This document shows, one piece after another, positions 3,311 to 40,688 of a DNA stretch of 64,000 bases. The translations under genes were made by a program, and so were the position numbers. This DNA is from Pirellulales bacterium. GTDB taxonomy: Bacteria > Planctomycetota > Planctomycetia > Pirellulales > JAIMBC01. Below the pieces are notes generated by a model, which searched no databases, was not told the DNA's origin, and worked only from the letters and a program-made list of their open reading frames with translations. The stretch's first letter is position 1. Each line of letters starts with the position of its first letter. The stretch lies in NCBI GenBank assembly GCA_023511675.1, contig JAIMBC010000001.1:13263-77262 (forward strand). Direction: 5' to 3'.

Positions 3311-5281
3311 TCACTCCTGCCGCATGAGTTTTTCGCACAGGCGCTGCACGTCGTAAACGCAGCCGCTCCACACGCCGCCGCTGGCGTGAATCAGGGCTGC
3401 CCAGAGCCGCGTTTCGGGTGGCAAATCGGGGTCGGCAGCCAGGTCGGAGCGCGGGGTGCGGCGCGCCAGCTCCTGTTCGCCCCACGCCGCATCTCGTTGC
3501 ACGTCGCCGCTGCCGACCAGATCGACGAAACCTTCCAGCCGCCGCCGATCGATCACGATCTGCACTAGATCGCCGTCCCGCAGCTTGCCAATCGGGCCGC
3601 CGGCCAGCGCCTCGGGGGAAACGTGGCCCACGCAGGCCCCCGTGCTCACGCCAGAGAACCTCGCATCGGTGACCACTGCCACTTCCCGTCCCCACGAGAG
3701 ATACCGCAACGCGCTGGTCACCTGGTAGGTCTCCTCCATCCCCGAGCCGAGCGGACCCCGGCCGCACAACACGACCACGTCTCCCGGCCGGACCGGCTGG
3801 CCTTGCTGGCCCTTGATGGCCGCCACGGCATCGCGTTCGCGCACGAACACCCGAGCACGCAGCGTGCGGCGATAGACCCCATCCGCATCGACCACGCACG
3901 GGTCGATGGCCGTGCTCTTGATGACTGACCCTTCAGGGCAGATGTTACCGCGGGGAAAACAGACGGTGCTGGTGAGGCCGCGTTGGGCGGCGCGGGCAGG
4001 GGGCATGATCACGTCGTCCGGATCCACGCCGTCACGTTCCCGCAGCAGGCGGCGAAAGTGCTGCCTGCGCGGAGAGTCCTGCCACAAGTCGAGCGCCCTA
4101 TCCAGAGGCACGCCGCTGGCGGTAAGCACGCTGGTCTCGAGCAGGCCCAGGGCGCGCAGATGCAGCATGACCTCGGGCACGCCCCCGGCAAGGAACACCC
4201 GCACGGTGGGATGGCCCACGGGACCGTTGGGCAGGGCGTCAACCAGTCTGGGCACGCGGCGATTGATCTCGACCCAATCTTGCAGCGTGGGCCGTGCCAG
4301 ACCGGCTGCATGGGCCACGGCCGGCAGGTGCAACAGCAGGTTGGTGGAGCCTCCCACGGCGGCATGCACGGCCATGGCGTTGCGTACGGCTGCGTCGGTA
4401 AGCACGCTGCGCAAGGCGATGCCCCGCTGGCAGAGGGACCAGAGCGCCTCGGCCGACCGGCGTGCCAGATCGAGCCACACGGGCTGGCCCGAGGGCGCCA
4501 GCGCAGAATGGGGCAGGGCCATGCCCAACGCCTCGGCCACGACCTGCGACGTGGCAGCGGTGCCCAGAAACTGGCAACCGCCCCCAGGCGTGGCACAGGC
4601 ACGACAGCCCAGCACCGCGGCCTCTTGGAGGCTGATTTCGCCCTGCACGAAACGGGCGCCGATCGACTGCACCTTGCCCGCGTCTTCGCCCTCCTCCGGA
4701 GGCAGGGTCACCCCGCCCGGCACCAGCACAGCCGGCAAGTGGCCCGCCGCGGCGAGTGCCATCATCATGGCAGGCAGGCCCTTGTCGCAGGTCGCCACGC
4801 CCAGCAAGCCGCGGCCCGTGGGGAGCGAACGGATCAGCCGGCCAAGCACCGTGGCAGCGTCGTTGCGGTAAGGCAGGCTGTCGAACATGCCTGTGGTGCC
4901 CTGGGTGCGGCCGTCGCAAGGGTCCGAACAGTAGACCGCAAACGGCACTCCTCCCGCGGCCTTGAGCACCCGCGCTGCCGCCTCGACCAACAGATGCACC
5001 TCCCAGTGGCCGGTGTGGAAACCCAGTGCCACCGGCGTGCCATCCGCTGCGCGCAGTCCGCCGTGCGTACTTAGAATCAAGAACTGCGGCCCCAGCATCT
5101 GGTCCACCGGCCAGCCCATACCGGCGTTCTGGGAAAGGCCAAACAGCTCTCCGCTGGGCCAGCGGGACAACATCTCTGCAGTGAGCGGCAGCGCACCTGC
5201 CGGCCCGGGTGCAGCCGTGCGCACGTCGGCCACATCGGGCGGAAGCTCTTTCAGCCATGCGGCTAGATCGAAGTGGGTCAT
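3311..5281 (-). CDS. IlvD/Edd family dehydratase (length and architecture resemble YjhG/YagF-type sugar-acid dehydratases)
   Basis: Family motifs [39 protein letters not shown] and GGSTN. About 656 aa. ATG at 5281 has GAGG 12-15 nt upstream. The track start at 5299 is a TTG. Confidence 0.9.
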
Positions 5282-5404
5282 GGTACGGGGGTGCCTCAAG
5301 GCGGGCCGTGAGCATCAAGATAGCATGCGGCAGGCCGGTGCCGGCAAAGGCGGGCATGCCGGTCTCGCTCATCCTACTACGTTTCGCCCCGCCTGCTCAT
5401 CCTC

Positions 5405-5620
5405 GTAACCGTACAAGCCGCCTGGGGGGACGCGCTCCGTTGCGTCCGGGGAGCACACACGGCGGGCGCCCATCGCGGCCACGACGGAGCGTGGCCCTCC
5501 AGGACGGAGTACGAGCCTAAACGGTAAGCTGGAATGGCTTCTCATTCGTCGCTTCTCACTCTTCGCTTCTCTGTCTCACGTGTTGTCCGCCCCGGCGCGA
5601 TGGTGCCGGTGTACGGTTAC
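5405..5620. repeat. MITE/REP-like dispersed element, copy A (216 nt, perfect 11-bp terminal inverted repeats)
   Basis: GTAACCGTACA at 5405-5415 and its exact reverse complement TGTACGGTTAC at 5610-5620. The reverse-complemented first 26 nt match copy B (25077-25102) at 25 of 26 positions. Both copies share a GA/CU-rich tract, the GGAGGGCCACGC module and the hairpin module GGACGCG-ACGGAG-CGCGTCC. Confidence 0.65.
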
Positions 5621-5684
5621 CATTCTCTTGCAGACTGATAGCAGTGCGAGCCACGCCGCGGCGCGGCAGCGCGGGTAGCAGGCC

Positions 5685-6836
5685 TTACAAGCCGGCCAGC
5701 GATAGTGCCCGGTCAAGGTCGTCGCGCAGATCCTCGAAGGCCTCCAGGCCGACACTCAGGCGGATGAGCCCGTCGGCGATACCGGCCCGGCGGCGGTGCT
5801 CCGCGGCATAGCTGGCGTGAGACATGGTGGCCGGCTGCTCGATCAGCGATTCCACGGCCCCCAGGCTCACGGCAAGCTGAAACAGGCGCGTGGCTTGCAC
5901 GACGCGGCGGGCAGCGTCGAGATCGCCGGCCACTTCGAAACTGAGCATGGCGCCAAACCCGCCCTGCATCTGCCGCGCCGCCAGCGCGTGTCCCGGGTGT
6001 GCCGGCAAGCCGGGATAATAGACGCGCCGCACGCGGCGGTCTGCGGCCAGATACTCGGCCAGCGCCTGTGCCGTGCGAGACTGCTCGCGCACGCGCAGTT
6101 CCAGCGTTTTCAGGCCGCGCGCACAGAGGAACGACTCGACTGGCCCGAGCACGGCACCGGTGGCGTTCTGCAAGAAATAGAGTCGATCGTACAGGTCGCG
6201 TGCGGCCACGATCAGCGCGCCGCCCAGCAGGTCGCTATGTCCGCCAAGGTACTTCGTGGCGGAGTGCATGACGATATCCGCGCCCAACTCGAGGGGGCGC
6301 GTCAGCACCGGCGTGGCAAACGTGCTATCCACCGCCAGCAGGGCGCCATGCTGGTGTGCCAGCCCGGCGCAGGCGGCAATGTCTGAGATGCTCAGCAGCG
6401 GATTGCCGGGGCTTTCGATCCAGATCAGCCGCGTTTGGGGCGTGATGGCCGCAGCTACCTGATCGGGCTGCGTGGTATCGACGAGCGTGGTGGAGATGCC
6501 TTGCTGGGCGAGCACCTGGTGCAGTAGGCGGTAGGTGCCTCCATAGAGGTCCTGCCCTGCCACCACGTGGCTGCCGGGGGCAAGCAGCATCATGGCGCCG
6601 TGGATGGCAGCCATGCCGGAGGAATAGGCGAGCGCGGCTACCCCCCCCTCCAACGAAGCCAGGGTCGTTTCCAGTGCACGTCGTGTGGGATTGCCGCTGC
6701 GGGAGTAGTCGAATTCGCGCCACGCTCCAGCCTGGTGCTGCACAAAGGTGCTGGCCAGGTACAAGGGCGGGACCACTGCACCGGTGGCGGGGTCGGCGTG
6801 CTGACCCACGTGAATCGCGCGTGTGCGGAACTGCAT
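5685..6836 (-). CDS. Cys/Met-metabolism PLP enzyme (cystathionine gamma-synthase / gamma-lyase / beta-lyase family)
   Basis: PLP-lysine motif MHSATKYLGGHSD. N-terminus MQFRTRAIHVGQ. 383 aa. The exact activity cannot be assigned from sequence alone. Confidence 0.9.
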   Translation of the reverse strand: MQFRTRAIHVGQHADPATGAVVPPLYLASTFVQHQAGAWREFDYSRSGNPTRRALETTLASLEGGVAALAYSSGMAAIHGAMMLLAPGSHVVAGQDLYGGTYRLLHQVLAQQGISTTLVDTTQPDQVAAAITPQTRLIWIESPGNPLLSISDIAACAGLAHQHGALLAVDSTFATPVLTRPLELGADIVMHSATKYLGGHSDLLGGALIVAARDLYDRLYFLQNATGAVLGPVESFLCARGLKTLELRVREQSRTAQALAEYLAADRRVRRVYYPGLPAHPGHALAARQMQGGFGAMLSFEVAGDLDAARRVVQATRLFQLAVSLGAVESLIEQPATMSHASYAAEHRRRAGIADGLIRLSVGLEAFEDLRDDLDRALSLAGL

Positions 6837-6994: not shown

Positions 6995-7600
6995 CTATCG
7001 ATACAGGTTGTGGCTGAGGATGTATTGCTCGACGGCAGGCGGCGTCTGGTACTTGATCGACAGGCCGGCTGCCGCGCGCCGACGGATCTCGCTGGAAGAG
7101 ATGCCCACCACAGGGATGCACACCGCATGGGCCCGGATCCGCTCGCAAGCCTCCGCGCCGAGCACGCCGGCCAGCGCAGCGAAAGCCGGCTGTTCGCATC
7201 CCGGGCGCGGCGCCACGACCAGCGTGGCCAGTTGACAGATCCGCGCCGGCTCGCGCCAGTGGACCAGATCGGCCAGCATGTCGCTGCCCAACAAGAAGAA
7301 CAGCGCTCGGGTCGGGTCCTCGGCATGCAGTGCGGCCAAGGTCTCCACGGTATAACTGGTACCGCCGCGGCGGATCTCCAGCTCCGACACGGCGAACGCC
7401 GGCTGCCCCGCAATGGCCAGCTCGAGCATCTCTACACGCCGCACGGCCGGCGTGAGCGGCGCGCCGCTCTTGTGCGGCGGCGTGGCGGCCGGCATGAACC
7501 AAACCTGGTCCAGGCGGTGTGCCTCACGGCATAGTTCGGCCAGCAACAAATGGCCATAATGCACGGGATCGAACGTTCCGCCGAACACACCCAAGCGCAT
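6995..7600 (-). CDS. nadD: Nicotinate-nucleotide adenylyltransferase
   Basis: N-terminal MRLGVFGGTFDPVHYGH (the GxFxPxHxGH nucleotidyltransferase motif). 201 aa. Confidence 0.9.
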   Translation of the reverse strand: MRLGVFGGTFDPVHYGHLLLAELCREAHRLDQVWFMPAATPPHKSGAPLTPAVRRVEMLELAIAGQPAFAVSELEIRRGGTSYTVETLAALHAEDPTRALFFLLGSDMLADLVHWREPARICQLATLVVAPRPGCEQPAFAALAGVLGAEACERIRAHAVCIPVVGISSSEIRRRAAAGLSIKYQTPPAVEQYILSHNLYR

Positions 7601-10076
7601 GCCACATCACTCACGCGGGTTAAAAGATCCGAAGCAGCAGTCTAGCGAGCAGGGCTGGCTGTTTGAAGTCGCGCCTCCGCCGTGGGAAGGGGATGCCGCC
7701 GAGGAGCCGCTGGCAGAGGTCGTTTTCCCTTCCGGTCCCGAGGGAGAGTGGACCTACCTGGTGCCGGCACGCCTGGCCGGGCAGGTGGAACCGGGCCGCC
7801 GCGTGCTGGCCCCCATGGGACGCGGAGACCGCTTGCTGATCGGCTACTGCGTGCGGGTCGAATACGCCGTCCCTCGCGGCAAGCTGAAGAGCATCCGCCA
7901 GGTGCTGGATGAAGTGCCGCTGGTTCCCCCAAAGCTGCTTGCCCTGACGCGCTGGCTCGCCGACCGCTACCTCTGCCCCTGGGCCCAGGTGCTGGAAACC
8001 GTCGTGCCCTCAGCGGTGCGGCAGCATGCCGGCACGCGGTTGACCACGCTGTTGAGCGTCCCGCCGGACGTCTCCGCTCGCCTGAACGACCTCAAGCTGC
8101 CAGCCGCCCAGACCCGCGTGCTGCGCCTGTTGGCCCAGTGCCCCCAGCCGCTCACACCGCGCCAGCTCGCCTTCGAAGCCGGCTGCACCCAGGCCCCCAT
8201 CTCGCAACTCCGCCGCAAGGGGCTGATCCGGGCAGAGCATCGCCGCCTCAGCCGCTTCGAGGCCCAGGAGGTACCCGCCCCGTCCGACGCTCCCCACGCT
8301 CTCAATCAATACCAGCAGGCTGCCTTGGACCTCATCCGCCAGGCAATCCAACAGCGGCGGCACGAAGTGATCCTGTTGCACGGCATCACGGGCAGCGGCA
8401 AGACAGAAGTCTATATCCGCGCCATAGAAGAGGTGATCTCCTTCGGGCAGCAAGCCATCGTGCTGGTACCGGAGATCAGCCTTACGCCGCAGACGCGGCA
8501 GCGGTTTCGTGCCCGCTTCGGCCACGTGGCCGTGCTGCACAGCCACCTCAACGATGCGGAACGGCACTGGCAATGGAATCGCATTGCACGCGGAGAAGTG
8601 CATGTGGTCGTGGGCGCCCGCAGCGCCGTGTTCGCCCCCACGCCGCGATTGGGCATGATCGTGGTCGATGAAGAGCACGAAGGCTCCTTCAAGCAGGCCA
8701 CAGCACCCCGCTACCATGCCCGCGACGTGGCCCTGGCACGCGCCCAAAGCGAGCAGGTGCCCGTGGTGCTAGGCTCTGCTACGCCCTCCCTGGAGAGCTG
8801 GTATCGCGCTTTGCAGGGCGAGTACCGCCTGGCAGAGCTGCCCGCTCGCGTGCTGGACCGTCCACTGCCGGAGGTCCGCGTCGTCGACCAACGCACTCAG
8901 CTCGGCTCTGCCGCGCGGCACGGCCCCCTCTCGCGTCCCCTGGACGAAGCCATGCGGCAGGTGCTGCGCGAAGGGGGGCAGGTGATGCTGTTGCTGAACC
9001 GCCGCGGCTATGCGACGCACCTGCAATGTCCGTATTGTGCGCATGTAGTGCGCTGCCCAGCTTGCGATATTGCCCTGGTGCACCACCGCCAGCAACACGC
9101 GGCCCTGTGCCATTACTGCGAGCACACCCAGCCCCCTCCAGATGTGTGCCCCGAGTGCGGCAAACCCGGCATCCGCTACAGCGGCCTGGGCACGCAGCGG
9201 CTGGAGCACGAAGTCCAGACGCGGTTCCCGGAGTACCCGGTGCTGCGCATGGATCGCGATACGATGCAAGGCCCCGGCAGCCACGAAAGGGCCCTCGATG
9301 CCTTTCGTGCCGGGGACAAGCGCATTCTGCTGGGCACACAGATGATCGCCAAGGGACTCGATTTTCCGGATGTGACCCTGGTGGGCGTGGTCAATGCCGA
9401 CGTGGCCCTGCACCTGCCGGACTTCCGTGCCACGGAGCGGACCTTCCAGCTACTGGTGCAGGTAGCGGGCCGTACTGGGCGAGGCGATCGCGGCGGCTGC
9501 GTGCTGATCCAGACGCTGAATCCCGAGCATGTGGCCATACAGGCCGCTGTCCGCCACGACTACGAGCTGTTCGCCCGCCGCGAGCTGGCCAACCGCCGCG
9601 AGTTCAACTATCCTCCCTTCTCCAGCCAGATCCGCATGGTCATTCGCGGTCCGAGAGAGGCTGCCACGCGAGCCACAGCCGACGAGCTGGCTGGCCACAT
9701 CCGTGCGGCGCTGGGCATACCACCTGGATCCATGCAGCCGGGCCAACGGGCAGCGCCGCAGGCGGAGAAGCAAACCACCCCCGCGGGACAGGCTGCTACG
9801 CCGGCACCCGAAAATGGCCGTGAGGCCCAGCAGGGCCTGGCCGGCCCGTGTAGCCCCGAGGCCGCAGGTGGACCAGAACGTGAGGCTGCCACTCGGGTGC
9901 TTGGCCCGGCACCGGCCCCCTTGGCACGCTTGCGGGGGCTGTACCGATTTCACCTGCTGATACAGGGGCCACAGCTCGAGCCGCTTGCGGCCGCCGTCCG
10001 GCAAGCAACGGCCTCCGTGAGCACGCCCGAACACGTGCAGTGGATCGTGGACGTTGATCCGCTGGATATGCTCTAG
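7599..10076 (+). CDS. priA: Primosomal replication protein N' (PriA helicase)
   Basis: Walker A GITGSGKT, DEEH box VVDEEHE, and a Cys-rich zinc region CPYCAHVVRCPACD...CHYCEH...CPECG. The only canonical in-frame start is ATG 7599. It overlaps the nadD start inside a CATG. Confidence 0.9.
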   Translation: MPHHSRGLKDPKQQSSEQGWLFEVAPPPWEGDAAEEPLAEVVFPSGPEGEWTYLVPARLAGQVEPGRRVLAPMGRGDRLLIGYCVRVEYAVPRGKLKSIRQVLDEVPLVPPKLLALTRWLADRYLCPWAQVLETVVPSAVRQHAGTRLTTLLSVPPDVSARLNDLKLPAAQTRVLRLLAQCPQPLTPRQLAFEAGCTQAPISQLRRKGLIRAEHRRLSRFEAQEVPAPSDAPHALNQYQQAALDLIRQAIQQRRHEVILLHGITGSGKTEVYIRAIEEVISFGQQAIVLVPEISLTPQTRQRFRARFGHVAVLHSHLNDAERHWQWNRIARGEVHVVVGARSAVFAPTPRLGMIVVDEEHEGSFKQATAPRYHARDVALARAQSEQVPVVLGSATPSLESWYRALQGEYRLAELPARVLDRPLPEVRVVDQRTQLGSAARHGPLSRPLDEAMRQVLREGGQVMLLLNRRGYATHLQCPYCAHVVRCPACDIALVHHRQQHAALCHYCEHTQPPPDVCPECGKPGIRYSGLGTQRLEHEVQTRFPEYPVLRMDRDTMQGPGSHERALDAFRAGDKRILLGTQMIAKGLDFPDVTLVGVVNADVALHLPDFRATERTFQLLVQVAGRTGRGDRGGCVLIQTLNPEHVAIQAAVRHDYELFARRELANRREFNYPPFSSQIRMVIRGPREAATRATADELAGHIRAALGIPPGSMQPGQRAAPQAEKQTTPAGQAATPAPENGREAQQGLAGPCSPEAAGGPEREAATRVLGPAPAPLARLRGLYRFHLLIQGPQLEPLAAAVRQATASVSTPEHVQWIVDVDPLDML

Positions 10077-11873: not shown

Positions 11874-12995
11874 TCAAATCGCGTCCGTACGGCCTTTGAG
11901 CGGTTGAGAGAAGCTGAGAAGGCCATCGAGGTTGGCCAGTTCTCTCTGGTAAAAGTCATTGCCGTTGCGGAGGTCGAAACGCAGGGCCAGGCGTTCGGCC
12001 TGCTGGGTAAACCAGCTTTGCAGCTCCGCTACGTGGTACTTGCCTGCCGTATCCGGGGGAGGAATGCCATCTGGGATGCGCAGCTTGAACTGGTGCGTGC
12101 CCGCCTCGCGGAGGCGGCGCAGCCAAAGGCAGGCAGCCACATAGAATGCGTACCTGTCCAGTTCCAGCGGGGCGGCGAGGGCACACGGCAGGTGGCGCTG
12201 GAAGATGCGGCGGGCCAGGTCGAGGTCTCCCGCCAACGCGGCGAACTTGAGTTGCTGCGCATGTTGCTCAAGGAACTGCTGCTTGCCGGCCACCAGCCGG
12301 TAGCCGCGAGCCTGATAGTGCCATGCCTCAGAGAGCCGGCCAAGCTTGAGCAGGGGCAAGAGAACCCGGTGCAGCGCGACATGGGGTTCTTCAACACAAC
12401 GTAAGCGGCCTTGCAACACGGGTGCCGCGGCTTCGACCGCCTTTTTGGGCTGGTTGCAAAACGCATAATAGCCAGCCTCTTCGCTGGCCTGGCAGGCAGG
12501 ACAGTCGCTCAGCTCGTCGCGCGCGCGGCGCTTGACCTGCCGGTGCATCTGCTGGGCCAGCTTGCGTTCTCCCATGCACTGGGCCACGCGGCGGCGGCAG
12601 GTGTACACGGCGTGCAGCGTCGAACCGCAGGCGCGGTAGCGGCACGCCATGTCTTCCAGCAGGGCTTCAATCTGTGCGCGACTGATCTCCGCAAACCCGA
12701 CCACATTCGTTACGATCCACTTGTACTGCCAGAGCACGTCGTGACCGTCGAACTTGGCGGGGTTGGCATCGTAACACGCCAATCGCCAGGCGAAATGCGT
12801 CAGCATTAGATCCGCCCGCCCGGAGAACGATGCTGCCGCAATGAGTTCTCCACGCAGGTCGTAGCCCAGTTCACGATCGTTGAGCGTGTCCGCCAGCGAC
12901 ACCGCCTGTTCGAGCAACGCTACCTTGGTGGGCGAGTAGGGCAGGCAGTCGGCCTGCCACCGCAAACCGTAGATCTTGTCCCGTAGATCTCTCAC
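11874..12995 (-). CDS. Uncharacterized helical (TPR-like?) Cys-bearing protein, translationally coupled to the HSP90 paralog
   Basis: GTG at 12995 overlaps the upstream TGA (GTGA) and has GGAG 5 nt upstream. The alternative ATG 13025 lacks a Shine-Dalgarno. About 373 aa, predicted all-helical, with Cys clusters (CRYRACG, CRRRVAQC, DCPACQ). I recognise no family. Confidence 0.7.
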   Translation of the reverse strand: MRDLRDKIYGLRWQADCLPYSPTKVALLEQAVSLADTLNDRELGYDLRGELIAAASFSGRADLMLTHFAWRLACYDANPAKFDGHDVLWQYKWIVTNVVGFAEISRAQIEALLEDMACRYRACGSTLHAVYTCRRRVAQCMGERKLAQQMHRQVKRRARDELSDCPACQASEEAGYYAFCNQPKKAVEAAAPVLQGRLRCVEEPHVALHRVLLPLLKLGRLSEAWHYQARGYRLVAGKQQFLEQHAQQLKFAALAGDLDLARRIFQRHLPCALAAPLELDRYAFYVAACLWLRRLREAGTHQFKLRIPDGIPPPDTAGKYHVAELQSWFTQQAERLALRFDLRNGNDFYQRELANLDGLLSFSQPLKGRTDAI

Positions 12996-14800
12996 CGCTT
13001 CTCCGATATCTGGCGCGTGCCCCATTCCATCAAACCCACCAAGCCGTCGCTGAGCAACGCCAGTTCTGCGGTCGAGAGAGGCTGGCGGGCATGTAGCAGT
13101 GCCTGCACGTAGAGCACTTCCAGACAGTGACGGCGCCCCGCCGAGTCGGACATGTGTGCCAGCCTTTGCACCAGCGGATTGCGCAGGTTTAGACACACCC
13201 GCGCCGAAGCACCTTCGTGCCGGCTGGCAATGCTGCCCAGCACGCCGGCGAACAACGGATCGGCCACCTCACGTGCCTGTTCCAGCGAGCGCAAGAAGCG
13301 GGCCTCGCTTCCGGCCAGGTACAGACACGGCACCTCGGCAGGCAGGAACTTGCGCACCTCTGCCATACAGCGAAAGCGCCGCAGCACTTGCTCCGCCGCG
13401 GCGAGCAGATCTTGCAGCCGTAGCTGCTCCTCCGCGTCGAGTTCTTGCAAATCGTGGACCAGTTCTGCGGGTTCGACCAGCTCGACCTGCACGTCGTGGA
13501 AAACATGGGGCAGTTGTGCGATCAGTTCTGCGTCGTACACATATCCGGCATTTACCAGCAAGATCCCCTGGGCAGAGGCCACTCCCAACATCTGCTCGTA
13601 CTGGGCCACGTCGTCCACGTAGCGAATCGTCCCGCCGCGTCGCCGCAATTCGCCGCCGGTCATCCGCCCTTGCGAGGTGTCGAAGGGGAGCCAGTCGATA
13701 AACGTCCGATAGCACTCCTCGTCCTCGGCTGCCAGGGCCTTCAGTGCCAGGCAGTGTACAGACAGAAAATGCTCGAACCGCTTGCTTTCCCGTTCGGCCA
13801 GCCGCAGCAGGTACTTCCGCAGGCAGCTACCCAGCTCGTCACGCGCCGCGGCCAGCCGCTCGTCTTCATAGAACGACTCGCGCGAGGCAGTAGGGCGCAG
13901 CTCGCGGGCGTTCACCACAGCCTTCACGAAGAATGCCCAATCCGGCAACAGGTTATCTGCCGCCTCACTCAGCAGCATGTCCTTGAGATACACGCGATGG
14001 CTGCGGCGGGCGGCCAGATTGGCCGGCTCTGGCAGCACAAAGGCCACGCCATCGATGCCGCCGGCCTCCGCACGCAACACAATGGCATCGAGAAAGTCCA
14101 TACTCAGCACCCGCCTGCCGTAACGCAGCAGGGCCCGCCGCTGCTCCATCTCGCTACCATATTTCTGCCGCCAGGGCGGCTGCTCCTCATTGACCTGAAG
14201 CGTGCCTCTGCGTGATATCACCCGGATGGGATGCGGCAATAACCCGCCATAATGCGCAGCAAGTTCCGCCACCCTCTCCGTATCGAACAACTCCTCTGCA
14301 CCTGCCCGGCAGGTCACATACACCTGCGTGCCAGGGGCTAGATCGCCGCTCAGCGAACGCACCGTATACGTTCCATCGGCATGGCCGCGCCACTCGACCG
14401 CCGGCCCGCCGTGCAGGGAACGGCTGACCATCACGATCTCATCGCTCACCACGAAACTAGACAACAGCCCGATGCCAAACTGTCCAAGAAACTCAAGGCT
14501 CGGCTTGCCGGCGGCGTCGCGCTTCGAGGTGGCGCCAATCGTGGCCACAAAGCGGTGCAGTTCCTCTTCCCTCAGGCCCACGCCATTATCGCTGACCATC
14601 AAGGTGGGCGGCTTGCCTCGCGCCGCCGTAACCTCAATCTGGATCTCACCGCGAAAACCGGGTTCCTGCTGCTGACGAGCTGTGATCGCGTCTGCCGCAT
14701 TTTGCAGCAACTCCCGCAAGAAGACCTCGCGCCGACCATAAAGATGGTTCGACAGCAGCTCGATCATCCCCCGCAGATTGACCTGAAAGTGATGCGCCAC
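12992..14800 (-). CDS. HSP90-family protein (divergent HtpG paralog, GHKL ATPase)
   Basis: GHKL motifs ELLQNAADA, SDNGVGL and GQFGIGLLSSF at the N-terminus, followed by full-length middle and C-terminal regions. 602 aa with a GTG start. Divergent from canonical HtpG. Confidence 0.9.
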   Translation of the reverse strand: MAHHFQVNLRGMIELLSNHLYGRREVFLRELLQNAADAITARQQQEPGFRGEIQIEVTAARGKPPTLMVSDNGVGLREEELHRFVATIGATSKRDAAGKPSLEFLGQFGIGLLSSFVVSDEIVMVSRSLHGGPAVEWRGHADGTYTVRSLSGDLAPGTQVYVTCRAGAEELFDTERVAELAAHYGGLLPHPIRVISRRGTLQVNEEQPPWRQKYGSEMEQRRALLRYGRRVLSMDFLDAIVLRAEAGGIDGVAFVLPEPANLAARRSHRVYLKDMLLSEAADNLLPDWAFFVKAVVNARELRPTASRESFYEDERLAAARDELGSCLRKYLLRLAERESKRFEHFLSVHCLALKALAAEDEECYRTFIDWLPFDTSQGRMTGGELRRRGGTIRYVDDVAQYEQMLGVASAQGILLVNAGYVYDAELIAQLPHVFHDVQVELVEPAELVHDLQELDAEEQLRLQDLLAAAEQVLRRFRCMAEVRKFLPAEVPCLYLAGSEARFLRSLEQAREVADPLFAGVLGSIASRHEGASARVCLNLRNPLVQRLAHMSDSAGRRHCLEVLYVQALLHARQPLSTAELALLSDGLVGLMEWGTRQISEKR

Positions 14801-15079
14801 AGACCATGCTCCCCGCCGCCCGGCTCTGGAGTTTCTACATCCCGCCCATCACGCAGCTTCCACTATACGGCCTGCATGCCAGATGTAAAACCCATTCGCC
14901 GTCACGCGCGGGCAACGCACAGGCACACAGCATGGCCCCTCACGTGGCGGGCAGCCACCCTTACTCTCCCTATCGCCTGGGCGGAGATATTTACCCGGCT
15001 TGCCGGGAATGCGGCCGTCTCTGGCCGCCTGCTGGGAACGGCCGGCGAGGCACCAGCCCGCCAGGGGGCAGGTTGCGCT

Positions 15080-16390
15080 TTACTCAGAAGGAGGGCAGGG
15101 ATGCCCGCCCCCCGTGGCATGGCGCAGGCGGGCAAACTCGCGGTAGCGCTGGAGGGCTGTCTGCCGGGCCTCGTCGTCCGCAAAACCGAGCGTGGCCGTG
15201 TTGAAATACGTCAGGGCGTTTGCCTGCGCACGCTCGAAGCCGTATGCCCTCAGATCCTGGCCCGTAAGCCGTACCAGCACCGCCAAGGCCACGTCGCGCA
15301 CCTGAGTCTGGATCTCCTGGTCGTTCAGCTTGAAGCTGGCACAGGCAGCCGTGTCTTCGAGCAGCGGTTCGATCTGTTCGATGTAGGCGGCCCCGCCCAG
15401 CTTGGCCACGCACAGGATGCCGTACTGGCGAATGTGGGGCGGCGTGGCGGGAGACTGCATCACGGCCAGGGCGGCCGGAATGCCCTCGGTCAGTTCATAG
15501 CGCAGAGACAGGACAATGTTCTGGTAGGTCACGGTGGAGTCGGCATCGAAGGGTCGAGCGACCCACGCGCCCAGCAGGCGGCGGACCACGTCGGTCTGGC
15601 CGGCATCGCGCATGGCCTCTTGCAGCTCTTTCTGATAGGTAAAACCGGCAATGGTGGTGGCGGTTTCGGCCGAGATGGGAACGTCCTCGCGGGACCCCAC
15701 CAGGAGCAGGGCAAGCACGCTGCCGGCCCCGGGGGGGCGGCGCTGGGTCGGATCGAAGTGTTGCATCGACTGTTGCCACTGCTGGCAGCGCGATTCGATC
15801 GCCTCTGCAACCGCTGCGGCAGAGTTCTCAGCCCCTTGCAATAGCCAGCGTTCTGCGCGGAGCATCTCCACAAACAGGCGCCGGCTGGCGGCGTTGTTGC
15901 CTGCCAGGGCCCGGTAGCGCTCCCAGCAGGGAAGGTCGTGCTGCAAACAGCCCTCCACATCAGCGCTGAAGGCCTCCAGCCTGGCCTCAAAGTCGAGGTC
16001 CATGATGTGCGCCAGGATCTGCCGCGCACGCCGGCGCACCTCCGCATCGGGGCTGGCAAGCGCTTGCTCCAATGGCTGGCGTGCGGGCAGACCGATCTCC
16101 GCCAGCCGCGCTGTGGCACGTTCCCGCACCCGGTAGCGGCTGTCTCCAAGCTGGCTGATCAACCGCTCGATCTCACCTGCCGGACCAGCCGCTCTGGCAG
16201 GCATTGCCTGTGCCGCCAGAAGCATACACCATCCCGCACAGACCAGGCCACGCACCCAAGAACTGCGTCCACGTTGTGCCACGGTTAACAGGAGATAGCC
16301 TTGCCTCACGGCAGGTCGCCTCCAGGATGTGCTCACTTCAGGACCGGTGTACCGTCGCGGTGCGCGCCGCGGTGATCGAAACACGTCCAC
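15080..16390 (-). CDS. Hypothetical secreted protein with HEAT/armadillo-like helical repeats
   Basis: Signal-like segment VRGLVCAGWCMLLAAQAMPARAAG, then repeats of the type SRYRVRERATARLAEIG / DAEVRRRARQIL. The start is uncertain: GTG 16390 as tracked, or internal GTG 16255. Confidence 0.6.
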   Translation of the reverse strand: MDVFRSPRRAPRRYTGPEVSTSWRRPAVRQGYLLLTVAQRGRSSWVRGLVCAGWCMLLAAQAMPARAAGPAGEIERLISQLGDSRYRVRERATARLAEIGLPARQPLEQALASPDAEVRRRARQILAHIMDLDFEARLEAFSADVEGCLQHDLPCWERYRALAGNNAASRRLFVEMLRAERWLLQGAENSAAAVAEAIESRCQQWQQSMQHFDPTQRRPPGAGSVLALLLVGSREDVPISAETATTIAGFTYQKELQEAMRDAGQTDVVRRLLGAWVARPFDADSTVTYQNIVLSLRYELTEGIPAALAVMQSPATPPHIRQYGILCVAKLGGAAYIEQIEPLLEDTAACASFKLNDQEIQTQVRDVALAVLVRLTGQDLRAYGFERAQANALTYFNTATLGFADDEARQTALQRYREFARLRHATGGGHPCPPSE

Positions 16391-20278: not shown

Positions 20279-21307
20279 TCAGGGCACCACGAGGCGCGCC
20301 TGCTGCGCCGCCACACTAAAGCGTGCGATGCTGCCGCTGTTGAACTCCAGGGCATCCGCCTCCATACCGTCTGAAAAGATCACGCCTCCCGTGGGCATGT
20401 GAGATTCGACGACCAGTTCCTCACCCTGTTCGAGGCAGCCGATCACCAGCTCCGCGCTGGACTGCCGGCTGACAAACGGCTCGCGAGCGACCCATACCAG
20501 CCGGTGGTCTTCCCACCGCACGGCCGGGCGTTCCGGCACCGCCTGGCCGCAGTAGCGCGCCACGCCGGCCGCCATGTTGAAGACGCTGGAGAGCCAGCCA
20601 GTGGACCCTGCCCCCGTGGCCACCAGCAGACCGCTAGAGGACTGCTGCTCCGTCCTCCCTCCCGCGCGCAGCAAGTAGCGGCTGGAGACCAGAGAGGCCG
20701 CACCCAGGTAAAAGTCGTTAAAGGCCAGCATCTCCTGGCCGTCGTTCAGAGCGACATGCGCCAGCGTGACCGCGCGCCAACGGGCCGTGCCCTCCAGAAC
20801 GGCCCGCACGGCCGTGGCCGCGCGTTCGACCGTGTAGGGCAGCAGCACGCCATCAAAACGTGTCGGGTCGGGGTTGACGCCCACGATGGGAAGCTCGCCC
20901 ACGTACTTGGCTGTGTTCGCCACCAGGCCGTCTGGCCCGACCACCAGCACCGCCAGCGTATTCCAGAAGTCATAGCTGGGCACCTGCGACCGGTCCAGCT
21001 CATGGATGGGGATCTCCGGCGGCAGCGAGGCGCGCAGCCGTGCCAGGGCGGCGCGGTACGCCTGATCCTCCTCTTCGTAGCGGCGGGCCTCGGCGGCCGC
21101 CTGTGCCTCGGCGGCCGTGAGCGACTGCAGCTCGGCCTGAGCGTCGGCGGCGGTAGCACCTGCCTGCATCGGCCGCTGCCGCATGGCTTCTTGCAGGTAC
21201 GCCTGCGCCAGGTGGAACTTTGCCCACCCGGGCGTGACGTGCCGCGCAAGCAGCATGGCCTGCCGCGTGGCTCGCGTCACGAGTGCGATGCTCTTGATGG
21301 CTGCCAT
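20279..21307 (-). CDS. NAD-kinase/diacylglycerol-kinase-fold protein with N-terminal coiled-coil region
   Basis: VVVGPDGLVAN resembles the GGDGT motif, and ATGAGSTGWLSS resembles the NADK TGSTAY motif. An Ala/Glu/Gln-rich helical segment of about 100 aa lies N-terminal. Confidence 0.75.
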   Translation of the reverse strand: MAAIKSIALVTRATRQAMLLARHVTPGWAKFHLAQAYLQEAMRQRPMQAGATAADAQAELQSLTAAEAQAAAEARRYEEEDQAYRAALARLRASLPPEIPIHELDRSQVPSYDFWNTLAVLVVGPDGLVANTAKYVGELPIVGVNPDPTRFDGVLLPYTVERAATAVRAVLEGTARWRAVTLAHVALNDGQEMLAFNDFYLGAASLVSSRYLLRAGGRTEQQSSSGLLVATGAGSTGWLSSVFNMAAGVARYCGQAVPERPAVRWEDHRLVWVAREPFVSRQSSAELVIGCLEQGEELVVESHMPTGGVIFSDGMEADALEFNSGSIARFSVAAQQARLVVP

Positions 21308-21437: not shown

Positions 21438-22457
21438 TCACTTTTCCTTGTTACGCGTGCGCAGCAGAGTCGTCAGCAGCTCGGGCGAAACGTTGAACTC
21501 GCCGATCTTGGCCGCGTTCTGCGCCAGTTCCTGGAAGGCCAGCGAAATCAGCATCTTGGGATCGCCAGCACCAGCCGTCGCCAGGAGTACACGCCAGTCG
21601 ATGCCCTGGATCGGCTCCAGCACGGCACGCAGACCGTAGGCCCGCGCGTCGGCCTCCTTGCGCTCGTTGGCCGCGCGCCGCTCCACCAATTCCGTACGCT
21701 GCACCTCCAGCGCCACCTCGGCCGCCATCTGGGCCTCGCGCACCTGTCGCCGCCGCTGCTCGATGGCCAGTTCGGCGTCCATCTCGGTCTCGCGGACCTG
21801 CCGCTGCTTCTGCTGGACGGCAATTTCCGTGTCCAGCTCGTTCTCCCTGATGGTGCGTTCCAATTCCACGGCGGTGTTGCGGCGGGCATAGATGGCGTGG
21901 TCCGCCTCCAGCAGGAGCCGCTCGCGTGCCTCGGCCTGCAGCGCCTTGGTCATCTCGGGCGTGGCGCGCACCTGCTGGACCACCAGCCCAAGAATCTCGA
22001 CGCCCAGCATGGCGGCCTCCCCCGAGTTGCGTAGCTCTGGCAGCAGCGCGGCCGCCAGCCGGTCGGCGCTGGTGAGCAACTCTCTTAACGGGTGCCGCAG
22101 CGCAAAGGCACGGGCGAGCATCTGCACGGCATGCACCAGACGTTCGCCCAGACGTTTGTAGTCCTCGGTGCGGTAGCTGCCGTCCGCTGCCAGAGTGAAG
22201 TCCAGCACGGCGGCCGCGCGGCGCGGATCGGTGATGCGGTAGGTGAGCAGCCCCTGAAGGGAGGCCTCCTGAAAATCTGCTGTCATCTCGTGGAAGACGA
22301 AGGGCACGTCCACGCTGGCCAGGGGCACGTTCACAATCACCGAGTGCGGGGCGAAGTAGTAGAACGAGAGGCCCGCCCCCTCCCGACACAGCCGCCCGCG
22401 GCGATAGTGCATGACATACGAGGTGGGTGCGGCCTTGAGAAACCTCACGCCAAACAT
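21438..22457 (-). CDS. SPFH/Band-7 domain protein (no obvious N-terminal TM anchor) with C-terminal coiled coil
   Basis: SPFH-like core (VPFVFHEMTADFQEASLQG...LGVEILGLVVQQVRATPEMTKALQAEARE), followed by repeated ER/EL heptad-like segments. ATG has GGGAGG upstream. Confidence 0.85.
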   Translation of the reverse strand: MFGVRFLKAAPTSYVMHYRRGRLCREGAGLSFYYFAPHSVIVNVPLASVDVPFVFHEMTADFQEASLQGLLTYRITDPRRAAAVLDFTLAADGSYRTEDYKRLGERLVHAVQMLARAFALRHPLRELLTSADRLAAALLPELRNSGEAAMLGVEILGLVVQQVRATPEMTKALQAEARERLLLEADHAIYARRNTAVELERTIRENELDTEIAVQQKQRQVRETEMDAELAIEQRRRQVREAQMAAEVALEVQRTELVERRAANERKEADARAYGLRAVLEPIQGIDWRVLLATAGAGDPKMLISLAFQELAQNAAKIGEFNVSPELLTTLLRTRNKEK

Positions 22458-36915: not shown

Positions 36916-36944
36916 TTGAAGCGCCGTACTTGCCCAATTACTCT
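36916..36944 (+). promoter_or_regulatory. Sigma70-like promoter candidate for the giant secreted-protein gene
   Basis: TTGAAG (36916-36921), 17-nt spacer, then TACTCT (36939-36944), preceded by a T-rich tract. About 118 nt upstream of ATG 37062. Confidence 0.3.
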
Positions 36945-37061
36945 AACTTTCAAACTCCACACGTCGGATATGTTGCCGAGCCCCGGTGCCCCGCGGGTTG
37001 GGGAATGGACGCCACCCGCCCCGCGGCTGCTTGCGGGCAGCACTTAGCAGGAGATCTCCCC

Positions 37062-40000
37062 ATGCGATCCTGGCCAGATTCACACAAGCAGCGCTCCAAG
37101 ACCGCACGCCGGCACGGCCTAATAGCCCATGCCCCACGACGCCGTTTGGGCTTGCAATGGCTCGAGGATCGTCGCCTGCTGACCGTCGACATCACGGCCT
37201 TTGATTTTACCCTCGGCCAGTTCACGTTTACCGGCGACCAGACTGGTGCCAACGAGGTCGACCAGCTTCAACTCGGCGTCTTCGGCGGTTTGCTCACGCA
37301 CAACCTCCTTGCAATTGGCGGTACGGGAGACTACCTCAGCGCTTTCGACTTCGATCCCACCGCTGGCGTGCAGACCATTGCGGTCGGGGCCGGCACCAAC
37401 CCGCTGATCACTGTCAACCTCTTGGGTGGTGACGACAGCCTCACAATTACGACCGACGGGCTGATTGGCATACACCCCATCGTCTACGACGGCGGCACAG
37501 GCTCCGACACGCTCAGCCTCTCGGGCAGCACCGCCGGCCATGCGGTTACTTTGAGCGCAAACGGAGATGGCTGGAACGGTGGCACCACGGGGATCAGCTT
37601 CTTCAACGTCAACGTCGTGGAAGGGTCGGCAGGCGACGATACGTTGAACGTGCAATCCACCTTCGCCGCAATTACTTACATCGTCGATGCAGGCCCGGGC
37701 AACGACGTGATCAACGTGTCCGCCGACGCGCCGGCCAATACAGATACCCTGGATTTCATTCTGGGCGCGCTGTTCATCATCGGCAACGCGGGCAGCGACA
37801 CGCTGAACATCAGCGATGCCGGCCGTGCCGGGGCCAGCACCTTCCTGCTGACGAACACCACGCTGGACCGCACGGGCATGGCCCAGATCACGTATGGCAC
37901 GGTGGAGGCGTTCAACCTGGACACGGGCGACCAGGCCACCAGCGACGACACGATCAACATCCAGTCCACCGCCGCGGGTACCACCTACACCGTGGACGCC
38001 GGCGCGGGCAACGATGTGATCAACGTCTCCAGCGATGCGCCGGTGAATGCGGGCGATCTGAACGGCATCCTGGGTGCGCTCACGGTGAACGGCGGGGCGG
38101 GCACGGACACGCTGAACATCAGCGATGCCGGCCGGGCTGGGGCCAGCACGTTCCTGCTCACGGGCACCACCCTGAACCGCACGGGCATGGCCCAGATCAC
38201 GTATGGCACGGTGGAGGCGTTCAACCTGGACACGGGCAACCAGGCCACCAGCGACGACACGATCAACATCCAGTCCACCGCCGCCGGCACGGTGTACACC
38301 ATTAACGCCGGCCAGGGCAACGATGATGTGAACGTTTCGTCAGATGCCCCCACCATGGCGGGTACGCTCGACGGCCTGCTGGGACCGATCACCTTGAATG
38401 CCGGGGCTGGCACCAACGATCTGTTCTTCAGCGATGCCGGCCGGGCCGCGGGTGCAACGTTTGATCTGACGGCCAGCACGCTTGCCCGCACGGCGATGGG
38501 GCTGGCCACCTATAATGGCTTTGCCACCTTCCGGCTCGATGCCGGCACGGGGGACGACACGCTGAACGTTGTCTCTACCAACGCCGCCACTGTCTATACG
38601 CTCAATACCGGCCTGGGGAGCGACACAGCCAACGTGCTATCTCTGGCCGTGGGCGGCGACACGACGCTGAACATGGGTGGCGGCGACGATACGGTGAACG
38701 TTTCCTCCACGGCACCCAGCCTGCTGGGCTCGCTGGATGGCATTCAGGGCTTGTTCGCTCTGGACGGGGGGGCTGGCACGGATCACGCCAGTTTCAGCGA
38801 TCTGGGGGATCCGGACGCCAACGTGTACACCGTTACCCACGAATCTGTGTTCCGTGGCGGCATGGGAGACGTGCAGCACAGCAACCTGGAGATCCTCACG
38901 CTGAACACGTCTGCCGGCAATGATCGGGTGAACCTGCGGCTCGATACCGCGGCTCCGGCACTTCCCAACGTGGTGCAGCTCGACGGCGGCGCGGGCGGCC
39001 TGAACCTGTTCTGGGTGCTGGGCACGTCCCTGAACGATACCGTGACGGTGGGCAATTATGTGGTCGGCCCCCCCGCCGCCATCCTCGCCGGTGATCCGGT
39101 ACAGATCCAGAACTTCGCCTCCATGTTCATGTTCGGCTTCGAGGGCGACGACACGTTTACCAATAATACGGCCACCCCCTCGCTGTTGAGCGGCGGAACG
39201 GGGACGGACAATCTTACCGGGGGCTCGAACAACGACTTGATCTTTGGTGGTGCCGCGGGCGACAACCTCTTCGGCAATGCGGGCGACGATCAGATCTTTC
39301 TCGATCTGGACATCGCCCTGGACGGCACCATCTCAGCGGTCGCCGTGGCAGGCGGCGTGGGGAACGGCGGGCCAGGAAACGACGTTGTCATCGCCTCGTC
39401 GCCGGCGGCCATCGTGAGTGGTGCCGAAGTGTTCCAGCCCCTCGGCGTGCTGGACGTGATAAGCTGGCTCACCGGGCGTCCCATCCCGCCGGACGTCGTG
39501 GTGGCCATCATCGGTGCACTGCCCTCGCACCCGCTGGTGCAGCAGTTGGCCCAGTTCTCGCCGCCGCCTGCGGGCCTGCCCGCAAGCGTGCAGCTCCCGC
39601 TCAATCCCTTCGTGGCGGAGGCATACCAGACCCTGCTGGGCCGCACGGTGACGGACTCCGACCCCGGCGCCCAGTACTGGACGAATCGGGCCGCCTCGGG
39701 CACGAGCATCGAGGAGATCCGCCTGGGCTTCCTGGCGAGTGCCGAGTACTTTGTACGTGCGGGCGGCACGAACGCCGCCTTTGTTGCGGCCCTGTACCGC
39801 GACCTGCTGGGCCGGAATGGTGCCTCGGGTGAAATTGCCTACTGGACGCAGCTTCTGGCTCAGGGTGCTTCGCGGTGGCAGATCGCTTATGGCATCATGC
39901 ACAGCCAGGAGGGGCTGCACTACCAGGTGAGCGCGATCTACGCCAAGCTCGGCCACCCGGTACCCGCGGCGGCGGATCTGAACCGACTGGCCATGGTGGC

Positions 40001-40688
40001 GGATTTCCTGGCTGGCGTGCCCTACAAGTTCGCGTACGACCAGGTCCAGCTCCAGGCGGGCAACTACACAGCGGCCAGCAAGAGCTACCAGTACGTGTTG
40101 GGGCTATATGAGCGCGTGCTGGGCCGCACGCCGGCAGACGCGGAGCTGGGCTACTGGCTGGCGCAACTCGCCTCGGGGCAACTTACCCAGGCCGGGCTGG
40201 CGCACACGTTCATCAACTCCACGGAGTACCGCATGCAGCGGGTTGAGGCGCTGTACCAGCAGCACCTTGGCCGATCTGCTGATCCCGCTGGCCTTGCCCA
40301 CTGGCTGGCCCTGTTGGGCCGCGGCGGCAGCATTGCCGACGTGCAACTGGCTATCATCGGCTCGCAGGAGTACTACACGCGTGCCGGCGGTACGGACCAG
40401 GCGTTTGTGGCCAGCCTGTACGTGGAGTTGCTCGGTCGTGCAGCCGCGCAGGCGGAGGTAGACTACTGGACGGCCGTGCTGGGGGGCAGCTCGCGTGGCC
40501 GCGTGGCCGCCTCGATCATGGCCAGCGCGGAGTTCCGCACGGTGCTTGTGGCGAACTGGTACCAGCAGTACCTGCACCGTCAGGCGGGCAACGCCGAACG
40601 CGACCGCCAGGTGGCTGCGCTGGGCAGCGGCGTGCCGCGTGAGCAGGTGCAAATCAGCATCCTGGCGGAGGCAGACTTCCGCGTCTAG
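37062..40688 (+). CDS. Giant secreted repeat protein (~1208 aa): N-terminal basic/LEDRRLLT motif, ~100-aa beta-rich tandem repeats, RTX-like Gly/Asp repeats, five C-terminal DUF4214-like modules
   Basis: ATG 37062 follows GCAGGAGA. N-terminus MRSWPDSHKQRSKTARRHG...RRRLGLQWLEDRRLLT. Repeats TY(I/T)VDAG.GNDVINVS...DTLNISDAGRAGASTFLL. GGTGTDNLTGGSNNDLIFGGAAGDNLFGNAGDDQIF. DUF4214-type LYxxLLGR...YW modules (FVAALYRDLLGRNGASGEIAYW and similar). Confidence 0.85.
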   Translation: MRSWPDSHKQRSKTARRHGLIAHAPRRRLGLQWLEDRRLLTVDITAFDFTLGQFTFTGDQTGANEVDQLQLGVFGGLLTHNLLAIGGTGDYLSAFDFDPTAGVQTIAVGAGTNPLITVNLLGGDDSLTITTDGLIGIHPIVYDGGTGSDTLSLSGSTAGHAVTLSANGDGWNGGTTGISFFNVNVVEGSAGDDTLNVQSTFAAITYIVDAGPGNDVINVSADAPANTDTLDFILGALFIIGNAGSDTLNISDAGRAGASTFLLTNTTLDRTGMAQITYGTVEAFNLDTGDQATSDDTINIQSTAAGTTYTVDAGAGNDVINVSSDAPVNAGDLNGILGALTVNGGAGTDTLNISDAGRAGASTFLLTGTTLNRTGMAQITYGTVEAFNLDTGNQATSDDTINIQSTAAGTVYTINAGQGNDDVNVSSDAPTMAGTLDGLLGPITLNAGAGTNDLFFSDAGRAAGATFDLTASTLARTAMGLATYNGFATFRLDAGTGDDTLNVVSTNAATVYTLNTGLGSDTANVLSLAVGGDTTLNMGGGDDTVNVSSTAPSLLGSLDGIQGLFALDGGAGTDHASFSDLGDPDANVYTVTHESVFRGGMGDVQHSNLEILTLNTSAGNDRVNLRLDTAAPALPNVVQLDGGAGGLNLFWVLGTSLNDTVTVGNYVVGPPAAILAGDPVQIQNFASMFMFGFEGDDTFTNNTATPSLLSGGTGTDNLTGGSNNDLIFGGAAGDNLFGNAGDDQIFLDLDIALDGTISAVAVAGGVGNGGPGNDVVIASSPAAIVSGAEVFQPLGVLDVISWLTGRPIPPDVVVAIIGALPSHPLVQQLAQFSPPPAGLPASVQLPLNPFVAEAYQTLLGRTVTDSDPGAQYWTNRAASGTSIEEIRLGFLASAEYFVRAGGTNAAFVAALYRDLLGRNGASGEIAYWTQLLAQGASRWQIAYGIMHSQEGLHYQVSAIYAKLGHPVPAAADLNRLAMVADFLAGVPYKFAYDQVQLQAGNYTAASKSYQYVLGLYERVLGRTPADAELGYWLAQLASGQLTQAGLAHTFINSTEYRMQRVEALYQQHLGRSADPAGLAHWLALLGRGGSIADVQLAIIGSQEYYTRAGGTDQAFVASLYVELLGRAAAQAEVDYWTAVLGGSSRGRVAASIMASAEFRTVLVANWYQQYLHRQAGNAERDRQVAALGSGVPREQVQISILAEADFRV
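37674..38594 (+). repeat. In-frame tandem coding repeats (units of 309, 309 and 300 nt) inside the giant gene
   Basis: Unit anchors (Thr-x-Tyr codons) at 37674, 37983, 38289 and 38589. Blocks 37797-37973 and 38106-38282 differ by about nine substitutions by my count and share an identical run of more than 55 nt. Confidence 0.85.

Follow-up and report, generated by a model that had tools for sequence, protein, structure and literature searches.

A gene for an HSP90-family ATPase and, directly downstream of it, a gene for an uncharacterised helical partner protein form a conserved pair on the minus strand of a 64,000-nucleotide (nt) stretch of DNA from a Pirellulales bacterium (Planctomycetota; contig JAIMBC010000001.1, positions 13,263 to 77,262 of the forward strand). 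This stretch as a whole is referred to as the window, and coordinates are window positions unless another record is named. The HSP90–partner pair spans at least eight bacterial phyla and is found in Listeria and Streptomyces, among others. It may represent an ancient, self-contained two-gene operon in which the partner serves as a dedicated co-chaperone or adaptor of the HSP90-family protein, a reading whose chances are judged to be about even. The literature routinely portrays bacterial HSP90 as operating without co-chaperones, as it does TRAP1 and GRP94, and the cellular role of bacterial HSP90 is poorly understood.

Conservation of the gene pair

The distribution of the pair was surveyed by a GTDB scan with one genome per species, using an alignment of the HSP90 paralog as the query and taking the best 80 of at least 595 matching stretches. 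Among these best 80 loci, 77 have readable downstream DNA, and in 72 of them a profile of the partner family identifies a partner gene directly downstream of the HSP90 gene and on the same strand. The taxa comprise Planctomycetota, Acidobacteriota, Myxococcota, Bacillota (Paenibacillus, Saccharibacillus), many Actinomycetota, Deinococcota, Bacteroidota (a Chitinophaga), Desulfobacterales, and the betaproteobacterium Undibacterium. A preliminary description of this DNA, made from its sequence alone, had proposed that the partner be looked for beside orthologs of the HSP90 gene. The two genes decidedly do co-occur, and the adjacency holds in both directions: in an independent plasmid collection, in which several records are chromosome-sized, the partner is adjacent in all seven records that contain the HSP90 paralog, and each of the eight partner-bearing metagenome contigs used in a reverse look-up has an HSP90-like gene immediately upstream that overlaps the partner gene by 4 nt. 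The recurrence of this arrangement in dozens of unrelated genomes far exceeds chance.

The spacing of the two genes is similarly tight. Start and stop codons could overlap as NTGA at 43 of the 75 junctions measured, and at most of the others the genes overlap by 1–14 nt or lie within 20 nt of each other. This count used the candidate start nearest to the stop codon and is therefore biased towards overlaps, yet in most loci the partner profile itself starts to match only a few codons from the stop. Pairwise divergence of the HSP90 protein and of the partner is correlated (r = 0.90, and 0.65 among distant pairs), with the partner evolving faster than the HSP90 protein (mean identity of 34% versus 47%). 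Two tandem partner genes behind a single HSP90 gene are found in loci L038 and L051 and in Listeria.

Clustering of all flanking open reading frames (ORFs) revealed no third gene that is conserved across phyla, only synteny within genera (Micromonospora, Streptomyces). The upstream plus-strand ORFs in Streptomyces and Micromonospora were dismissed: the one in Streptomyces is an antisense shadow of recG, and none in Micromonospora has a domain match. On this evidence, the pair is a self-contained and vertically stable unit of two genes.

The loci lacking a partner within 6 kilobases (kb) downstream of the HSP90 gene are L006, L011, L021, L047, and L052, four of which belong to Planctomycetota and one to Sandaracinus. 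A substitute partner was sought there and rejected, as the downstream ORFs have no informative domains, with two exceptions: L021 encodes ankyrin repeats, and L047 has a match to the PQQ_2 beta-propeller.

The HSP90-family ATPase

The HSP90-family gene (12992..14800, minus strand) starts with GTG and encodes 602 amino acids (aa). The resulting N-terminus, MAHHFQVNLRG, agrees with the N-termini of homologs, M-DH(R/K)FQINLRG, and the start is preceded by GGGGAG. The protein scores 759 bits against the NCBIfam model NF010683 (PRK14083, 'HSP90 family protein'), which has a curated cut-off of 455 bits, and its residues 1–599 align to profile positions 4–600 of 604. Canonical HtpG (E. coli Hsp90; equivalog model NF003555) has the same three-domain fold and the same ATPase motifs, but shares only about 19% identity with the 602-aa protein in a structural alignment. 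The HtpG model aligns to residues 3–575 and yields 175.4 bits, below its curated cut-off of 371 bits. The protein is thus a member of NF010683 and, as had been proposed in the preliminary description, not a canonical HtpG. The same description called it a divergent HSP90 paralog; the term paralog holds, whereas the picture of a one-off divergent gene does not, since NF010683 is a large family that is already known and named.

The Bergerat-fold motifs are present as RELLQNAADA (E30, N34, D37), DNGVGL (D71–G75), and GQFGIGLLS (G106–G111). The ELLQNAAD segment, encoded by codons E30–D37 (14690..14713, minus strand), provides the catalytic Glu, the Mg-binding Asn, and the Asp of the motif. In two alignments of homologs, A2 and A3, no variation is seen at E30, N34, D37, G75, G106, G109, or G111; D71 is fully conserved in A2 and almost fully in A3. 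The middle domain contains an 'SRE' loop with the catalytic arginine (codons R307–E308, 13877..13882, minus strand), which aligns to LSRELLQE of TRAP1. R307 never varies in either alignment; E308 never varies in A2 and only rarely in A3. With the catalytic Glu, the Mg-binding Asn, the nucleotide-binding Asp, the Gly-rich loops, and the catalytic Arg all conserved among homologs, the protein is most likely an active ATPase.

A phmmer search against solved structures aligned residues 3–375 to TRAP1 and E. coli HtpG (E ~1e-30), and no structure of the protein's own subfamily was among the matches. The AlphaFold2 model of the 602-aa protein (predicted local distance difference test (pLDDT) 86, predicted template modelling score (pTM) 0.79) superposes over its full length (~620–660 columns) on HSP90-beta, TRAP1, Hsc82, and HtpG, with E ~1e-34, a template modelling (TM) score of 0.6–0.66, and 17–20% identity. 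This full-length superposition indicates that the C-terminal domain is also present. Together, the motifs, the SRE loop, and the structural match bear out the earlier view of a full-length HSP90 with intact N-terminal motifs.

Deep bacterial HSP90 paralogs have been divided by phylogeny into Groups A, B, and C (Chen et al. 2006, PMC1525184). In a later study these groups are called hsp90A, hsp90B, and hsp90C, and hsp90B and hsp90C are expressly excluded from the functional analysis (Press et al. 2013, PMC3708813). According to Chen et al. (PMC1525184), Actinobacteria and Firmicutes are confined to Groups A and C, the second HtpG of S. coelicolor is 615 aa long, and the traits of Group C include shorter lengths in four variable regions. 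Streptomyces and Listeria, whose HSP90s were used by Chen et al., carry the NF010683 family. As their phyla are limited to Groups A and C, the NF010683 paralog is probably HtpG Group C (hsp90C), an assignment drawn from taxon distribution and length and not from a tree.

The partner protein

The partner gene (11874..12995, minus strand) encodes a protein of 373 aa that is 100% identical to NCBI MCL6501049.1. It matches no model in Pfam, NCBIfam, or PADLOC, in line with the earlier statement that it could not be assigned to a known family. A profile search of 1.84 billion cluster representatives, with clusters defined at 50% identity, retrieved 2,900 partner-family clusters at E <= 1e-3, of which 1,864 were found at E <= 1e-30. 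The family is large, without a name, and without a Pfam or NCBIfam entry.

The AlphaFold2 model of the partner is confident (pLDDT 93.7, pTM 0.90) and depicts an all-alpha solenoid of helix hairpins resembling tetratricopeptide repeats (TPRs), as expected from the earlier description of an all-helical protein of about 373 aa. Foldseek searches of the PDB and of viral models returned only generic repeat proteins, namely TPR, pentatricopeptide repeat (PPR), anaphase-promoting complex/cyclosome (APC/C) subunit (chain O), LGN, and SNAP-like repeats, with E ~1e-4 or weaker. A profile search of PDB sequences with the partner gave nothing meaningful.

Across 237 family members, conservation is strongest at R48, W70, D76, W89, K92, W93, D115, R119, DC165xxC168, C200-x3-P204, and the C-terminal FDxR343N344G. 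A triad of cysteines stands out, encoded within 12396..12503 (minus strand): C165 and C168 come from DCPAC, with which a helix begins, while C200 comes from the loop RLRCVEEPH. This triad, which combines a CxxC with one further Cys, is retained by all 87 partner copies in the fetched loci and by 96% of the 237 family sequences. In the model, C165 and C168 start one helix of a hairpin and C200 occupies the loop after the other helix of the same hairpin, which should bring the three residues near one another. From this predicted geometry, a metal or redox site can reasonably be inferred. The preliminary description had highlighted the clusters CRYRACG and DCPACQ. Both are present, and DCPACQ, which contains C165 and C168, is conserved; CRYRACG is not conserved in the family and was discarded as a functional cluster, and the invariant C200 had been missed.

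Candidates for a further ligand of the putative site were considered. At one position, His is found in 84% of the family, and this position is occupied by Gln in the window partner. H205 was ruled out as the fourth metal ligand, since H, Q, E, R, K, A, and L all occur at its position. A third candidate is located on the HSP90 protein: C478 (13367-13369), in the FxCxxEVRKF segment of the C-terminal domain, is Cys in ~93% of the paralogs. The position is Thr in Listeria and in locus L038, and Val in loci L035, L045, and L065. The partners of these loci retain the triad, which weakens the idea that C478 completes the Cys3 site.

Long forms of the partner occur in actinomycetes. They comprise ~900–1,050 aa, with the conserved 360-aa domain at the N-terminus followed by TPR_12 arrays, and are labelled 'hypothetical protein' by NCBI. 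Such forms are encoded in loci L053, L058-L083, L087, and L093 (Actinomycetota and others), and it is only their C-terminal extensions that match Pfam TPR_12.

Gene junction and upstream region

The two genes overlap at a GTGA junction (12992..12995, minus strand), read on that strand as cGGAGaagcgGTGAgag, in which the partner GTG occupies 12995-12993 and the HSP90 TGA 12994-12992. A Shine-Dalgarno-like GGAG (13001..13004, minus strand) is positioned 5 nt before the GTG, within the end of the HSP90 gene. Both features had been reported in the preliminary description and are confirmed on the sequence; their geometry permits translational coupling. An in-frame ATG (13025-13023) is found ten codons before the GTG and would give a 383-aa product and a 34-nt overlap with the HSP90 gene. 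On near-identical contigs, gene predictions from the Joint Genome Institute (JGI) and Logan begin at this ATG, whereas the NCBI annotation begins at the GTG. The GTG is the more probable start, judging by the N-termini of homologs and by the NTGA junction that prevails at other loci; in either case the partner gene overlaps the HSP90 gene.

A promoter-like site, TTTACA-16 nt-TATAGT (14862..14889, minus strand), is situated ~60 nt upstream of the HSP90 start, within a 279-nt intergenic gap. It agrees with the consensus at 10 of 12 positions and, as a consensus match only, is consistent with the pair being a separate transcription unit. In the regions upstream of HSP90 in 85 loci, no CIRCE or HAIR site was detected; the search gave one CtsR-like match with three mismatches and three weak sigma-32-like matches. 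Given the absence of CIRCE and HAIR and the single weak CtsR-like match, membership in a heat-shock regulon was rejected, and the unit probably lies outside the classical heat-shock regulons.

The pair in Listeria monocytogenes

Listeria monocytogenes contains the same module as the window. It consists of lmo0942 (HSP90 family protein), lmo0941 (Q8Y8G3), and lmo0940 (Q8Y8G4), and adjoins fri. In NZ_LR134399.1 (locus L085, 3139-7766), the order is lmo0942, the partner paralogs lmo0941 and lmo0940 in tandem, and a SUKH/SMI1-KNR4 gene. Both partner paralogs keep the Cys triad. The Listeria module differs from that of the window in its shorter partners (320–324 aa), in the Thr at the C478 position of the HSP90 protein, and in an 11-nt gap instead of an overlap. 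In annotations, the partners figure as hypothetical proteins or under the name 'tetratricopeptide repeat protein', and lmo0941 is stated to be of unknown function in a population-genomics paper (PMC6901971). In some Listeria strains (~110 contigs), lmo0940 is shortened to 83–87 aa.

Proposed mechanism and alternative explanations

In the proposed mechanism, the operon would encode a catalytically competent HSP90-type ATPase of NF010683, probably of Group C, together with a TPR-like solenoid bearing a putative Cys3 metal or redox site. Through the overlap of the HSP90 stop with the partner start, both proteins could be made together and in matched amounts. The most economical reading is a complex of fixed stoichiometry, in which the solenoid would bind the HSP90 dimer as a dedicated co-chaperone or adaptor, and would either present specific clients to the ATPase or tune its ATPase cycle. 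In the long actinobacterial partners, the extra TPR arrays might offer additional docking surface. A repeat scaffold, added TPR arrays, and duplicated partners behind one ATPase are features that fit adaptors. The partner is a strong, testable candidate for a dedicated partner of a bacterial HSP90. A more far-reaching proposal is that it represents the first dedicated co-chaperone family of a bacterial HSP90, an ancient Cys3 TPR-like protein that every 'Group C' HSP90 would have as a co-translated and bound companion and that would gate the ATPase or client loading of the HSP90; this is put forward tentatively, with somewhat less than an even chance.

Several observations weigh against a co-chaperone or adaptor. 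Adjacency and coupling are equally compatible with an obligate client or with a non-chaperone machine of two subunits. At E <= 0.01, neither the partner nor five other family members have a Pfam match, TPR profiles included. The HSP90 homologs have no conserved MEEVD-like motif at the C-terminus in the alignment, and their last 10–18 residues vary in length and sequence; with such a tail, the eukaryotic mode of docking to a TPR clamp via MEEVD does not apply. Given the lack of CIRCE and HAIR operators described above, the role of a stress chaperone gains no support from regulation. Five of the 77 genomes have no partner near the HSP90 gene. Conversely, in Actinomyces oris (locus L086, NZ_CP116225.1, 4962-7997) a protein of 1011 aa starts with a clear domain of the partner type (227 bits), and no HSP90 gene adjoins it; this record of the plasmid collection contains no HSP90 paralog at all, and this is the only partner without an HSP90 that was encountered.

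The invariant Cys triad could also be read as a cofactor site that needs assisted maturation. The partner would then be the dedicated client of the HSP90 protein, a metalloprotein that requires the ATPase for folding or for metal loading of its Cys3 site and is encoded beside its private chaperone. Conserved adjacency and coupling apply equally to such a client, and its faster evolution relative to the HSP90 protein would also be in keeping with it. The very regular and confidently predicted solenoid is, however, a type of fold that usually serves as a scaffold, and the partner has no enzyme-like match. C-terminal TPR extensions and tandem duplicates suit adaptors better than a single end-product client, and the partner's own downstream function would stay unexplained. 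A client role is accordingly rated improbable. It is highly improbable that the two genes are co-transcribed for a shared regulatory reason while their proteins neither touch nor depend on each other. This null explanation has no positive support, and adjacency, order, strand, and near-zero spacing are kept in at least eight phyla while all other neighbours change; operons of such stability are typical of subunits or pathway partners.

Unlikely as well is a non-chaperone, ATP-driven switch, in which the TPR-like protein would use its Cys site and repeats to sense a ligand, a protein, or a redox state. The GHKL ATPase would be its transducer or effector, with a function in signalling or in conflict or defence instead of general protein folding. 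TPR arrays are common as sensor modules, the long partner forms resemble sensor architectures, and the lack of heat-shock operators suits such a role. The N-terminal GHKL domain of the HSP90 protein weakly matches the TmtA models of PADLOC, but this similarity is confined to ~100 residues within the ATPase fold that they have in common, and the protein retains the HSP90 middle and C-terminal domains in full. The SUKH/SMI1 gene behind the Listeria pair is suggestive, as this superfamily includes immunity proteins of polymorphic toxin systems. On the other hand, the locus is syntenic within genera and is located among housekeeping genes in the window and in Streptomyces. The Listeria partner proteins are each present on at least 1,000 contigs, whereas defence islands are usually strain-variable. 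A known anti-phage defence system was rejected, since PADLOC gives matches to the ATPase fold only, the context is not island-like, and only three phage-collection records matched, all of them short and unannotated. The stable housekeeping context and the absence of PADLOC system matches thus disfavour the defence version of the switch.

Genomic context in the window

The window has a G+C content of ~65%, and the genes around the pair are ordinary chromosomal ones. They include priA and genes for a DUF1501 protein, a pyridoxal phosphate (PLP)-dependent enzyme of Cys/Met metabolism, a protein of the dihydroxy-acid/6-phosphogluconate dehydratase family, a methyltransferase resembling cyclopropane-fatty-acid synthase, and a DinB-family protein.

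The nearest upstream gene on the same strand (15080-16390, minus strand) encodes a protein with a Pfam HEAT_2 match (E = 1.2e-7) and a signal-peptide-like N-terminus. The preliminary description had noted it as a HEAT-like secreted protein 279 nt upstream of the HSP90 gene. Its position and features are as described, while a relation to the unit was not supported: no homolog is found beside the pair in 83 other loci, and the promoter-like site separates it from the HSP90 gene. It was thus rejected as a third component and, with no third gene conserved across phyla, is placed outside the unit.

The priA gene (7599-10076, plus strand) is located ~1.8 kb from the pair, and the Streptomyces pair (locus L064) abuts a divergent recG (3570-5831 of that locus, minus strand). 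Both genes encode replication-restart or repair helicases, and their proximity to the pair is probably a coincidence.

Three further genes of the window were recorded. A 1252-aa protein (36930-40688, plus strand) has four C-terminal DUF4214 repeats, with a weak match to the phycobilisome-linker family. A giant TPR protein of 1545 aa (58530-63167, minus strand) matches TPR_19, TPR_14, ANAPC3, and TTC21-like ARM repeats. A 342-aa ORF (20279-21307, minus strand) has no Pfam match but a strong coding-type G+C content at third codon positions (GC3 0.83), and adjoins a gene for an SPFH/Band 7 protein (21438-22457).

Significance and relation to known HSP90 systems

A whole ancient HSP90 paralog group travels with one uncharacterised partner gene of ~2,900 clusters. 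No description of the partner or of the conserved pair was found in the literature, which was searched as full text mostly outside subscription journals, so that an earlier mention is possible. Neither Chen et al. 2006 (PMC1525184) nor Press et al. 2013 (PMC3708813) mentions a partner gene beside the paralog. At a minimum, the partner family merits a name and a domain model.

The pair makes the question of bacterial HSP90 co-chaperones directly testable in the genetically amenable Listeria monocytogenes, Streptomyces, Myxococcota, and Paenibacillus. Should the partner prove to be a co-chaperone or adaptor, it would show that bacteria evolved HSP90 helpers independently, and the pair would constitute a minimal two-component HSP90 machine, for which Listeria and Streptomyces would offer a tractable two-gene system to study HSP90 regulation. 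The picture of bacterial HSP90s as acting without co-chaperones would be overturned if the partners are indeed the first family of dedicated co-chaperones for one of them.

A functional parallel is provided by the eukaryotic TPR co-chaperones of Hsp90, such as Hop/Sti1, PP5, FKBP51/52, AIPL1, and XAP2. These are likewise helical-repeat proteins functionally tied to an HSP90 ATPase, and the fold search with the partner returns structures of the TPR class. In contrast to them, the partner has no TPR profile match and possesses a Cys3 site, and its HSP90 has no MEEVD-like tail. The eukaryotic proteins are linked to Hsp90 by a shared network, the bacterial proteins are linked to each other by an operon, and homology is not indicated. 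CNPY3, a client-specific co-chaperone of gp96/GRP94, is unrelated to the partner in fold and lineage and is a conceptual analogy only. It offers a precedent (PMC2982182) in which an HSP90 paralog thought to be free of co-chaperones has a dedicated, paralog-specific helper.

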